A DNA stretch of 64,000 nt, taken from Isurus oxyrinchus. Its lineage: Eukaryota. The position numbers and the translations under genes are program-made. Below the pieces are notes generated by a model. It saw only the letters and a program-made list of their open reading frames with translations. It made no database searches and was not told the DNA's origin. Of the stretch, positions 6,510-10,650 are shown one piece after another. The stretch is from positions 16,864,001 to 16,928,000 of the forward strand of contig JANJGN010000027.1 in the NCBI GenBank assembly GCA_026770705.1. Reading direction: 5' to 3'. Numbering within the stretch: position 1 is the stretch's first letter; the number at the start of each line of letters is the position of its first letter.

Positions 6510-6840
6510 GTGTTCTGTCTGACAGAAAGAACATGTGCACACATTGCATCTGTTTCAGCTAAACAAAATAAGTGACAGCCATTCACTGGGTCATTCCCCA
6601 GGGCAATGTATTGACTAGAGTCAAGTTGCCTGATTTAAATTTCAAACAATGCTTGGCAGTTAACTGTCAGTCACCATCAACTGATACAGTCACCATGGTA
6701 ATGCCTCTACCAGAGTGCCCTTGCCAATCAGCACACTCTTCTCTTACAGTATAAATATGTTGCTTCCCTTGACATTAGTATTTCCTTGTGACTTGTCCTG
6801 ATGAGTGCGAGGTGAAAAGCTTCAACATGAAATGTCTCAT
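6510..6840 (+). mobile_element. Penelope-like element 3' remnant (ORF C-terminus plus terminal region with hammerhead motif)
   Basis: 6523-6555 encodes QKEHVHTLHLF, matching QKEYVQALHLF in the copy at ~10160. The downstream non-coding part aligns with the reverse complement of ~9980-10110 and ends in CTGATGA...GAAA. Confidence 0.8.
6793..6827 (+). ncRNA. Minimal type I hammerhead ribozyme-like motif (degenerate stems)
   Basis: ttgtc-CTGATGA-gtgcgaggt-GAAA-agct-TC-aaca. Both catalytic boxes are present, with palindromic AAGCTT at stem III and a predicted UUC cleavage site at 6823. Confidence 0.7.
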
Positions 6841-7623
6841 AATATTACTGCACCATAATCTAGCAAAACCCCAAGTTGTTGAACAAAATGGTTACAAATT
6901 ATCAATACAAAATTAAAATAAAACAGTGTAATGTTGCCATTTTGCTAATGAATGTGATGACAATTTTTAATAAGTACATCAGTTACATGTACCTAGCATA
7001 GTAAATTAACCTTTGGTCTAACTGACTTGAGGTATGTTTTGTTTGCTGTTTTAATAAAGGAACAGAAACAGACTGCAGTATTGGTGGTTTACATAGATTT
7101 TCAGAAGGCTTTTGATCAGTTTTACAAAAGGCGTGTAACAAAAAATTCATGGGTATAGAACAGTAGAAAAATAAAGCAAGATAGGTAGAAGTTTATTTGA
7201 TGGACAGAAAATTTTGGCAAACACCAAAATGACTGCAAATGACATTAGGAAAACAATTAGTGGAACAGGCAGATACAATTTAATTTAACATGGATATATT
7301 TGAGGCAAAATGTCTTGGAAGAAAAAAAACTAATGATTGGAGCACATACACAATCGAAGCACATGTATGAAAAGAAAAAAACTATAGGACTCAAACTGAT
7401 AATTCGCAAAGTGTAAGTGCAAGTACATAAAACCATACCAGTCAAGTGTCATGAAACATCTATGTTAAAGATGCCATATAAACGCAAGTTGCTCTTGTTC
7501 TGACCACATAACAGTCCAACTCAGTGTGAAATTGGTAAAGAAGGCATGACTATTTGTTGTTAATGACTTACCAGTTAACTAGTACTATTCCATAATGCAT
7601 TTATTAAAAAAAAAGACACAAAC

Positions 7624-7794
7624 CGTCTCATTTCCAAACAGGATATCAACGTAGGGGATAATTTTCATCAGGTCCTCCTTAAAAAACTGTGAGATGAATG
7701 GGGCCGATAGATTAAGACCCAAGATTTTATTGTTTTCAGAAACGTGATTTGCCACTTTCAAAATGGATTCTGCTGACACTGTAATAAAGAATCC
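7624..7794 (-). CDS. ADK: Adenosine kinase internal coding exon (171 nt, phase 0 to 0)
   Basis: [57 protein letters not shown], containing NLSAPF and the first three residues of the NxxE motif. Acceptor ttttgtccccttctAG|GGA, donor ACG|GTttgt. Confidence 0.96.
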
Positions 7795-7945
7795 CTAGAA
7801 GGGGACAAAAGATGCACAATGTTACTGGCTGTAGGTGAATCTATTTCAAATATCACAGCTTTTATGCAAGAAACTCATGAATGCAGTAAGTGATATCAGA
7901 CACTTAATAAATTGAGTATCAATGTAATTACATTTTAACACTATT

Positions 7946-8478
7946 AGTCTGAATTTTTCTGTCATAATAATAATGGCAAGGTTATCAGCCATTATTAGAG
8001 GATAAATCTAACAACGTCTGGTATTCACACAGGTACACTTAAATGCAGAAATCCAACAACTGCTAAACAACCTCTCTGGCCCTGAAAAAAATAAATTTTA
8101 CAAATGTGGAGAATCATTACCTCAGATGTTAGATTTAAAAAAAACTTTAAAAAAATCTGTCTTTCAATTTTATCTCTTAATGTCATCTGTGTTTCCAAAT
8201 CTTTATTTTGCTTTCTGTACACTATTTAAATTTAATTTATATTTCTGGTTTTCTATTTTATGGTTTATACTGTGATACACAATTCTTCAAGAGGTTTAAA
8301 AACTTCTGTGTTGGTTTCCTTGGTCACAGGTGCCAAAGATGCCCAATGAGAGCACCATACTCATACTGATGCCGTAACAGAAATCTCAGCTGACAAGCCC
8401 ATGTAAAGTCTGTAGGCAACTGTATGCGAGGTGAATGACAAAAGCCATTTCTTCATCAGTGAGAAGAAAATACGGGCC
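7946..8478. mobile_element. Non-autonomous DNA transposon/MITE, Harbinger-like
   Basis: Degenerate TIRs (agtctgaatttt / gaaaatacgggcc) with ATT on both flanks (7943-7945, 8479-8481). Homologous to 21821-22529. Confidence 0.65.
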
Positions 8479-8939
8479 ATTGTTTTGATATTAAGACAAA
8501 AAAATTCTAATAGAAAAGTAATATATTCAGATCAATTTTAAGTACAATAACACGTACTTAACAGTACTGCTCTACATCTTTCATCACAATTTTTAGACTA
8601 AGATACAGCCAAGGGACAATTCAGTGATCTATTCATTCCAGTAATTAACATCCATATTGGCTTTAATTTAAAAAATAGCTGAAGGTAACAAGAATGCTTT
8701 TGAAATATGTGCACTATATTTACAATTCTGCAACAACCCAAATGCATGCCATTCTAAATATATGCTCCAGTGTAGTTGCACTGCAGGAATTGTTTGAATG
8801 TTACTCTATTGAGAGCTATGTGAACAGGCTGCACAAAAGATATTGCCTTCTCTGCACCAGATAGAGGAAAGAAGAGCTCTGTACATGTATACTTAGTGTT
8901 TGAATGCCAGACGATTTCATTCATAAAAATACATTGAAG

Positions 8940-9375
8940 GTATGGCAGCATAGTAGTTATGCTAATCCAGAGACCTGAGTTCAAATCCTAACAGAGTAGC
9001 TCAATGTCAGAATGCTCGCCTTGGAGTCAGAGGGTTGTGCTTACTCCAGGTCATGAGTACAATCTAGACCAACACTCAGTGCAAAACTGTCAAAGTGCTG
9101 CAGTGTTGCAAATGTCATCTTTCAGATGCATTAGTCAACCCTTTCTCCTTATTCAGGTGGACATAAAAGACCCCCACGACAACATTAAAAGAATACTTAT
9201 CACTCAACCAACACCACTAAAAAAAAGTAACAGTCATTATTTGTAGGACTGTGTCCAAATTTGCGGTCACATTTGCCAACTTAACAGCAATTAGATTTCA
9301 AAAGAAATTCAATGGTCATGACACTGTTTGGATTGTCCCAAGGTCATAAAATATGTTAAATAAATATCAGAGTTT
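8940..9375 (+). mobile_element. Short SINE head followed by a decayed DeuSINE (SacSINE1-like) copy
   Basis: tRNA-like heads (gagttcaaatcc; cgccttggagtcagagggttgtg), Deu-like core tcaggtggacataaaagacccc and an L2-like tail. Confidence 0.6.
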
Positions 9376-9979
9376 TTTTCTGGAATATGTACAATTGTTT
9401 TTCCCAATTTTATTCATGAAGTTAAAGCCCCTCAACTTGATTTTATTGTGCTATATATCGACTCCAGTTGAAATTTATGTACTCCCTTCCAGCACTGTGA
9501 CCCTGGCCAGCCAAAAGGATTTTGAGAAAAATCCTGAGATTCAATCTCTGATTTGCACCCCCACAACTGGAGAATGCCAGACCTTCACTTGGTACCTCTC
9601 CACACAAAGCTGAGAGCTGGTGAAAATCTTTTTAAAGCCAATAAATTTAAATGTAAAATAATGCTGTTCATTATTGAATGCTGTGTCTTTTAGCTGACGT
9701 CTCGGTACTGGATGTTCCATGAGTTGAATAATTTTCAACAGCAAAATGTTTTTGAGATATGCTTCCTCAATTTCTACACACTTCTAACATTACTCACTGG
9801 ATCTTTGCCAGTTTACACTAGGTTGTCAATCTTATCTTAATGTGTATGTAAAACAGCACCTCTTCAGCTCTGTTTATACTAACATACAGATTAAATGCAA
9901 TCCAAATTGATTTTCCCACATTTTACATTAAAAAACAATTTTCTAAAGTACTTGAAAAGCTAATTGAAATTTTGCTGAA

Positions 9980-10650
9980 AAGGGAGACACGCTTCTGAAG
10001 TTTTTTGTCTTGCACTCATCAGAACAAATGCAAGAATGCCAAATTTCGAATGATCACAACCATTTATGCTATTGGTTGGCAACTCTGACTGGCTGAGGCA
10101 TTGCTATAAAGAAAGCAACATGGAATTATAGGCTCCCCAAGCTCCCAGGAAATTCAAAAAAGGTGCAAGGCTTGAACATATTCCTTTTGTTTGCAGAGAA
10201 TGGGTCCCGGCATATGAATGTATGTCGCTTCTAGCAAGCATATATGAGCCACGTTACAAACGCGACTGATTATCTTAAATTGGTTGTTAGTGTAGCTATT
10301 AGTGCTCTCTGGATGTTCAGCAAGTGCTACCCAATCGTGGAATTGCATCCAAGAGTAGACATTTTATTTTGCGTTTTGCAAGCGTAGACTGGTTGATTAC
10401 AGTTTGTACTCTGCCTATTACGAACAACTGAAAGAATGTGCTGGTTGATTCGATCAGCCAATCACTGGGACGTATGGCCTATGCATCTGGCATTGAAATT
10501 CTTACAAGATGTTACTCAAATACTTGATAGGCAGAATGTCTTTTTGGACCGATGGCAGCACCTTATTAGTACAAAATACCACTCACTTAGCCAATGCGTA
10601 ATAGCAGCATGAAATGGCCATGAAAATTAGCTTAAATTTGCTTTCAACAA
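9980..10650 (-). mobile_element. Penelope-like retroelement remnant encoding a decayed GIY-YIG endonuclease
   Basis: Minus strand reads ...VVFCTNKVLPSVQKDILP..SNIL*EFQCQ..CIGHTSQ*LADRINQH...STIG*HLL..NQFKIISRVCNVAHICLLEATYIHMPGPILCKQKEYVQALHLF*. This is the GIY-YIG (VVY...YIG) layout with the conserved R and E, followed by a hammerhead-like terminus. Confidence 0.85.
9991..10027 (-). ncRNA. Degenerate hammerhead ribozyme motif (GAAA box mutated)
   Basis: Minus strand reads ttgtt-CTGATGA-gtgcaagac-AAAA-aact-TC, homologous to 6793-6827. Confidence 0.55.

Follow-up and report, generated by a model that had tools for sequence, protein, structure and literature searches.

Minimal hammerhead ribozymes (min-HHRs) of metazoan Penelope-like elements (PLEs) carry a palindrome through which two motifs can pair, and they have thus been proposed to cleave as dimers (Cervera and De la Pena 2014, PMC4209133). 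As described there, they are type I motifs within the pseudo-long terminal repeats (pLTRs) of thousands of dispersed single copies, with a stem I of 4–5 bp, a G10.1-C11.1 pair and the palindrome at 15.2-16.2. We focus here on how these systems compare with a window of 64,000 nucleotides (nt) from the shark Isurus oxyrinchus, the whole stretch of DNA analysed, in which two PLE remnants, copy A and copy B, lie on either side of a 171-nt exon of the adenosine kinase gene (ADK), each with such a motif towards its 3′ end. We consider it probable that they are two old, separate and 5′-truncated insertions of endonuclease-bearing (EN+) PLEs, whose terminal-repeat minimal hammerhead was likely self-cleaving when the element was active, is likely dead in these copies and is neutral in ADK. 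The class is a known one, to which this element adds a new member with a variant hammerhead. Judging by its title, the 2017 work of Lunse, Weinberg and Breaker reportedly described small hammerhead variants of PLEs and their cleavage as dimers.

The shark motif shares with the min-HHRs of PMC4209133 all the features listed above; sharks are not named in the available text of that description. It differs from them in helix II, which has 1–2 bp and no extra base after A9, against 6–8 bp and an extra base between 9 and 10.1, and in a loop II that is predicted to pair with an upstream strand. According to a 2017 review (PMC6155905), PLE hammerheads are usually without tertiary interactions. A helix between stems I and II that replaces the loop–loop contact is known from the hammerheads of Perreault et al. 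2011 (PMC3088659), where an example of bacterial type, its 1-bp stem II braced by a pseudoknot of 6 bp, cleaves fast (>1.2/min) and where about 40% of the set may have a pseudoknot. That tested example is a type II motif from a metagenome with its own stem III, whereas the shark motif is type I, palindromic, without a stem III and carried by a retroelement, and its cleavage is only predicted. In PAc, the Poseidon element of Anolis (Frangieh et al. 2024, PMC11167929), a hammerhead likewise sits at the junction of the pLTR and the open reading frame (ORF), the tail being the ORF start; the PAc cut lies 26 nt inside the ORF, whereas the predicted shark cut lies 3–8 nt before the ATG. Retrozymes and PLEs have also been reported in one cartilaginous fish (bioRxiv 10.64898/2026.07.22.740005). 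No publication describing a pseudoknot of loop II in PLE hammerheads, or how these hammerheads are oriented in introns, came up in a literature search that did not extend to the content of Lunse 2017, one supplement of PMC4209133 and the bioRxiv supplements.

Identity of the element

The Penelope-like origin put forward in the original prediction is borne out by several lines of evidence. First of all, family copies extend upstream into thumb and reverse transcriptase (RT) sequence, which is continuous with the family A 3′ end and contains a YVDD-type motif; in two of the four frames scanned (L102 and L106), RVT_1 scores 30 and 36 bits, above its Pfam cut-off of 29.6 bits. Both window copies, being 5′-truncated, are without the RT. 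Second, copy B aligns through stops and frameshifts to nine full-length proteins that have an RT as well as a GIY-YIG endonuclease at the C terminus (tblastn E down to 8e-16) and that match the family at 34–51%. Third, the endonuclease is C-terminal and of the CCHH type, with a CxC between both Y motifs and two His downstream, in L096 as well as in P0001-8, and the top Atlas matches for the element protein are GIY-YIG and HTH_animal clusters (0.96). RT searches gave weak TERT matches only (E 0.75-0.93), together with group II-like RT matches. The description of both remnants as GIY-YIG-type holds for copy B; copy A has no GIY-YIG motif, and all that it retains of the endonuclease domain is the final ~20 codons (6526-6582).

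The EN+ PLEs of Craig et al. 2021 (PMC8557442) resemble the shark element in their C-terminal GIY-YIG endonuclease with CCHH, their pLTR, their inverted 5′-truncated partners and their tail. Among these clades, Neptune is defined by a CX2-5CXXC finger in the linker (PMC8557442); the RT-endonuclease linker of the shark element has two isolated Cys only, and Neptune was thus rejected. Hydra, which has no CCHH, and Naiad and Chlamys, whose endonuclease is N-terminal, were rejected on the CCHH and the C-terminal position of the endonuclease. From its motifs, the element would belong to Penelope/Poseidon or to Nematis; a Nematis placement is a guess from motifs. A non-LTR retrozyme was also rejected, since such elements consist of non-coding tandem units with hammerheads, whereas the copies here carry endonuclease coding sequence and are single or inverted.

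Two families are present, as had been claimed. Families A and B are about 65–70% alike over the endonuclease and share little beyond this likeness except the hammerhead region, and copies A and B are thus separate insertions. Further end variants of the element occur in this genome. Among the best 40 scored matches of each query in the 4.98-Gb genome (of 6,230 and 8,895 first-look candidates), those of copy A are 82–87% identical with common end points, and those of copy B are 74–79% identical, with query starts at 60–100 and ends at 705–721. As for the pLTR, an inverted second motif is seen at 13 of 148 loci, and in L037 and L038 the repeat runs on into the ORF, whose N-terminus follows it directly. 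Outside CpGs, the copies of families A and B lie 8.7% and 9.6% from their own majority; no young copies were seen among the copies compared, the minimum distance from the majority being 4.7%.

The hammerhead motif and its decay

Re-reading of the letters places hammerhead-like motifs at the positions claimed, on both strands: copy A reads CTGATGA, 9 nt, GAAA, AGCT and TC on the plus strand, ending at 6823, and copy B reads CTGATGA, 9 nt, AAAA, AACT and TC on the minus strand, ending at 9997. The heptamer CTGATGA alone is at chance level, with 18 occurrences in the window vs 13.2 +/- 3.9 in shuffles. Alignment of 30 + 30 copies recovers the ancestral motif that the original prediction had composed, and this 34-nt motif is real, with 92 exact copies in the genome, 3,184 when both CpGs are degenerate and 0 for the reversed pattern; near-perfect copies thus number at least 3,184, and if the density in introns holds, the genome would contain about 87,000 ends of the element. 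The family motif has a 5-bp stem I, a full core (CUGANGA, GAAA and NUH), a G10.1-C11.1 pair closing a 7-nt loop and, as predicted, the palindrome AAGCUU in place of stem III. Related elements were taken from metagenome contigs (80 loci kept of 421), and three of their families, L291, L300 and L308, are compared with that of the shark below. Stem I covaries at 5/5 positions across the four families, and AAGCUU is found in L300 and L308 as in the shark and is longer in L291, with a self-duplex energy of −4.9 to −6.7 kcal/mol.

The two CpGs of the motif cover the stem II pair, G12, the cut base and the first stem I pair; G12 is the general base of the ribozyme (PMC6155905). Both CpGs are kept by only 92 of the 3,184 otherwise perfect copies. 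At the CpG of C11.1/G12, 1,752 of these motifs carry TG and 963 CA, so that genome-wide its decay yields TG 1.8 times as often as CA; this skew probably reflects sequence context, since other CpGs of the element are biased 2–3 fold in either direction.

From their letters, neither window copy is likely to cleave. The claim that the antisense copy, copy A, keeps the full core stands for the core letters and fails for the stems, both of which are damaged: T stands at C11.1, G at A11.2 and A at G1.1, the last of which breaks the stem I pair beside the cut, and counting outwards from the core gives 0 stem I pairs. In copy B, the core is broken by the loss of G12, and one palindrome base and most of stem I are gone as well. 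CpG decay, which had been offered as sufficient for the losses of this sense copy, accounts for G12; the palindrome change is not at a CpG, and the damage to the palindrome and stem I includes non-CpG changes.

Several other hammerhead-like sequences were met. A weak Rfam HH9 match at 9035-9119 (E 5.6) was rejected, as it lies elsewhere in the window and has no core. A second hammerhead family in this genome (L017, L021, L060, L094, L105, L117) carries one more A behind CUGAUGA, its stem II is long and its palindrome is GUUAAC; L118, with a Poseidon-looking GIY-YIG frame, may be its parent, as a candidate link. At G000:C17:47.2-48.1 Mb, eight near-identical variant motifs lie 70–220 kb apart and were likely carried by segmental or gene-cluster duplication.

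A predicted pseudoknot and the start of the reading frame

Neither a loop II pseudoknot nor a cut site ahead of the start codon was part of the original prediction. In the shark family and in L291, L300 and L308, the 7 nt just 5′ of stem I are complementary to the whole of loop II. Among 115 shark-genome copies, which were picked for an intact-looking core, the upstream strand is kept at 0.87–0.97 per column over six positions, while the linker varies. No second loop II sequence was found in this genome: a first loop-variant pattern, which included the main family, gave 307 copies, of which the first 100 listed were all main family, and another gave 150 matches (control 50), of which the 100 listed were mostly main family. 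The covariation was thus taken from other organisms. L291, L300 and L308 have the same G-7nt-C layout as the shark with different loops, each pairing 7/7 with its own upstream strand, and pairs 2–5 (4/7) are changed on both sides across families. Slid-partner controls give 0–5 of 7 pairs, and the chance of 7/7 pairing is 0.005–0.013 per family, the four families being four data points with common ancestry. Pairs were counted by a script anchored on the core, MAFFT having misaligned the upstream strands of L291, L300 and L322. In a quick tree with 79 of 94 rows kept and long-stem-II labels set by eye, the pseudoknot families and the shark rows fall on one branch (Shimodaira–Hasegawa-like approximate likelihood ratio test, SH-aLRT, 95), apart from the long-stem-II relatives. 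These patterns argue that the upstream strand and loop II likely form a pseudoknot that braces the stem II of 1–2 bp. In one related family (L308, L309, L319, L320, L325, L295, L297), C3 is replaced by U and position 17 is mostly U, with stems, pseudoknot and palindrome intact.

Both the intact shark copies and the related families have an ATG 3–8 nt after the predicted cut, and this ATG reads into the N-terminus of the full-length relatives. By its codons, the ‘tail’ downstream of the hammerhead is thus where the ORF begins, which also holds for the Anolis element. Cleavage at this site would leave the ORF whole, and the location of the cut offers a concrete candidate role for the hammerhead. 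A pyrimidine-rich AG after the shark ATG was considered as a splice acceptor and rejected, as the L308 family does not have it and the codons account for it.

In the mechanism that we propose, two motifs on a tandem transcript would pair through their palindromes and thereby build stem III, and each loop II would pair with its own upstream stretch, the pseudoknot replacing both a long stem II and the loop I–II contact. Cleavage after C17 would then release a unit RNA whose 5′ end lies shortly before the start codon. For a single motif, folding is predicted to give an inactive hairpin built on that same 7-bp helix. After insertion, the CpGs at C11.1/G12 and C17/G1.1 would decay and disable nearly all copies, which leaves no need for selection. 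A more far-reaching version, which we entertain only tentatively and regard as doubtful, is that a PLE branch reaching from marine invertebrate-type contigs to sharks has rebuilt a 1-pair stem II as a 7-bp pseudoknot; it would be a fast dimer ribozyme, unlike the sluggish minimal hammerheads, its cut 3–8 nt before the start codon would define a leaderless mRNA, and it would be active enough for intronic sense copies to lose G12 preferentially. The minimal motifs in the literature, which were tested in the form of short constructs, showed poor cleavage; if the upstream strand is part of the fold, constructs that omit that strand would underestimate activity, and the four covarying families offer ready-made compensatory tests.

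A number of observations weigh against the reading of these copies as former self-cleaving PLEs or against parts of it. First, Pfam GIY-YIG stays below its cut-off in family frames (14.5 and 20.5 vs 22.6 bits); on short or broken frames, Pfam found a relevant family in 0/3. Second, the Rfam scan that had been proposed finds no hammerhead at either window copy; it also misses the motif when intact, with a hammerhead in 0/6 intact loci. Third, same-strand pairs of motifs within 3 kb, the dimer substrate, are rare (2/148 loci, both at one place). Fourth, L322 has a 6-nt loop with only 5/6 bases paired. Fifth, in 3/4 intact shark copies the monomer fold of lowest energy hides the core within a hairpin, at −8.6 to −14.4 kcal/mol vs about +1 for the bare hammerhead. 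Finally, cleavage of Anolis PAc needed its protein and was dispensable for insertion in vitro (PMC11167929).

Since the same 7-bp helix forms the inactive monomer hairpin, it may be an off-switch rather than a brace. The helix between upstream strand and loop II would then lie outside the active fold, as an inhibitory hairpin, and the ribozyme would stay off until the element protein or a partner refolds it, an explanation that we regard as rather unlikely. It fits the fact that this helix is the core of the lowest-energy monomer fold in L291 and L300 as well as in the three shark copies, that these folds extend it by pairs burying CUGAUGA, and that the Anolis hammerhead cleaves only with its protein. 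In all four families, however, neither the stem I arm nor C11.1 is taken up by the helix, and a linker of 1–5 nt is kept, as expected if both helices coexist, and the lowest fold of L308 and L066 keeps stem I; the two roles are, moreover, not exclusive.

It is less probable still, indeed quite improbable, that the motif is no longer a ribozyme in the active element and has persisted at the ORF start as a protein-binding, promoter or splice element. Families with proteins about 50–65% alike have all retained core letters, G10.1-C11.1, a palindrome and covarying stems, which speaks for a retained ribozyme, even though the L308 family has U3 and mostly U17 and, in the available account of the Anolis element, catalytic mutants inserted in vitro unaffected and no RNA-seq reads ended at the cut (PMC11167929).

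Orientation in introns and features of the window

The exon between the two remnants matches adenosine kinase (E 4e-25), its protein being 100% identical to lamniform shark ADK entries, and ten ADK exon matches extend over 227 kb of the minus strand; a contig of run X1, by our guess an RNA run, ends at 7794 and continues into letters read as the previous ADK exon. Copy B is thus sense and copy A antisense, as claimed. Orientation was compared over 1.427 Mb of oriented introns, comprising ADK and four CUB-domain exon clusters, of which only ADK is a named gene and in the rest of which direction was taken from the exon strand. The element-end profile gave 25 matches, 15 sense and 10 antisense (p 0.42), with a core readable in 23; the two others were left out of the letter counts.

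The original prediction had raised, as a hypothesis, selection against cleavage of host pre-mRNA, which would have removed or disabled sense copies and would be reflected in the G12 loss of copy B. We judge this improbable. Sense copies are not fewer than antisense ones, and only one copy, a sense one, has suffered no damage to core, palindrome or G10.1-C11.1 (1/13 vs 0/10). L080 (G000:C5:133356334, minus), which lies in sense orientation in an intron of a large CUB-domain gene, carries a fully intact hammerhead and would be a natural test substrate. Since a lone minimal hammerhead did not cleave in vitro (PMC4209133), there would also be little to select against. On the side of selection, Xenopus retrozymes are depleted in introns, a result that is not split by orientation in the text consulted (bioRxiv 10.64898/2026.07.22.740005).

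The letters of the core lean the other way in part. All core letters are intact in 3/13 sense vs 5/10 antisense copies, and at the first CpG sense copies carry CA 7 times and TG 2 times vs CA 3 and TG 6 in antisense copies, so that G12 is lost in 7/9 decayed sense vs 3/9 antisense copies (Fisher p 0.15); with one weak extra ADK match the counts are 8/10 vs 3/9 (p 0.07). Against a genome CA share of 0.355, which derives from otherwise perfect copies, the sense loss of 7/9 gives p 0.012 and, without copy B, that of 6/8 gives p 0.027, both of which speak against neutrality. On the other hand, Fisher p is 0.31 without the two window copies, the second CpG leans in the opposite direction (sense TG 6, CA 0; antisense CA 4, TG 2), and several intronic matches are inverted pairs of one insertion and thus not independent. 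The element's other CpGs have no orientation effect (41:34 vs 17:13). Mutational strand bias in transcribed DNA would push the loss of G12 the same way as selection. Within the 1.427 Mb, the comparison of core integrity leaves sense copies with a slight surplus of lost G12 (p 0.07–0.3); selection on sense copies is not supported, and the sample is too small. With genes annotated, the copies of the whole genome would be numerous enough for a strong comparison of orientation, provided that the intron density holds. In the C5 region, the second (GUUAAC) hammerhead family has 2 sense and 2 antisense copies.

Both insertions also occur in single-copy contigs of another organism, about 1–2% diverged, where the junctions and the 3′ end of copy A are found. 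This persistence would be expected if one copy had been recruited to regulate ADK splicing or decay, like the conserved amniote intronic hammerheads. Such recruitment is nevertheless highly improbable: both copies are damaged in ways seen across thousands of copies, and the density in ADK (4–5 per 227 kb) equals that in other introns (25 per 1.43 Mb). The ADK copies are most likely neutral passengers, ordinary transposon debris. By eye, no target-site duplication is readable with confidence at copy A or copy B.

Table 1. Coordinates of the two PLE copies, their hammerhead parts and the ADK exon within the window
Feature	Position	Strand	Basis or remark
Copy A, 5′-truncated 3′ end of Penelope-like element (family A), antisense to ADK	6511..6838	+	intron after 171-nt exon
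Last GIY-YIG endonuclease codons, copy A	6526..6582	+	tblastn to open frame of L096: 17/19 identical, E 6e-6
Predicted loop II pseudoknot 5′ strand, copy A, decayed	6784..6790	+	sequence; family pairing 7/7
Minimal type I hammerhead, copy A	6793..6828	+	predicted cut after 6823
Copy A, stem I 5′ arm	6793-6797	+
Copy A, CUGAUGA	6798-6804	+
Copy A, stem/loop II	6805-6813	+
Copy A, GAAA	6814-6817	+	palindrome to 6822
Adenosine kinase exon, 171 nt	7624..7794	-	fixes direction of transcription
Copy B, 5′-truncated 3′ end of Penelope-like element (family B), sense to ADK	9960..10618	-	intron before exon
Copy B ‘tail’, first ~10 codons of the element's own ORF by its codons	9960..9990	-	start codon decayed
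Minimal hammerhead, copy B	9992..10027	-	CUGAUGA 10022-10016; loop II 10014-10008; predicted cut after 9997
Copy B, hammerhead damage		-	10006, loss of G12 through CpG decay; 10001, palindrome broken by a non-CpG change; decayed 3′ arm of stem I
Predicted loop II pseudoknot 5′ strand, copy B, intact	10029..10035	-	7/7 pairs
Broken linker and GIY-YIG endonuclease frame, copy B	10157..10618	-	stops, frameshifts; tblastn matches P0001 (E 8e-16) and the L096 frame (E 3e-28)

The ADK intron that holds copy A also contains two family ends as an inverted pair, immediately outside the left edge of the window (G000:C27:16863500-16863800); its palindrome is broken alike in both arms, and the sense arm is also without G12. 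Two more ADK exons lie in the window on the minus strand, at 45844-45975 and 51791-51976. Finally, frames at 690-3167, 17437-17901 and 60848-63921 resemble, by eye, remnants of the reverse transcriptase of CR1/L2-type long interspersed nuclear elements.

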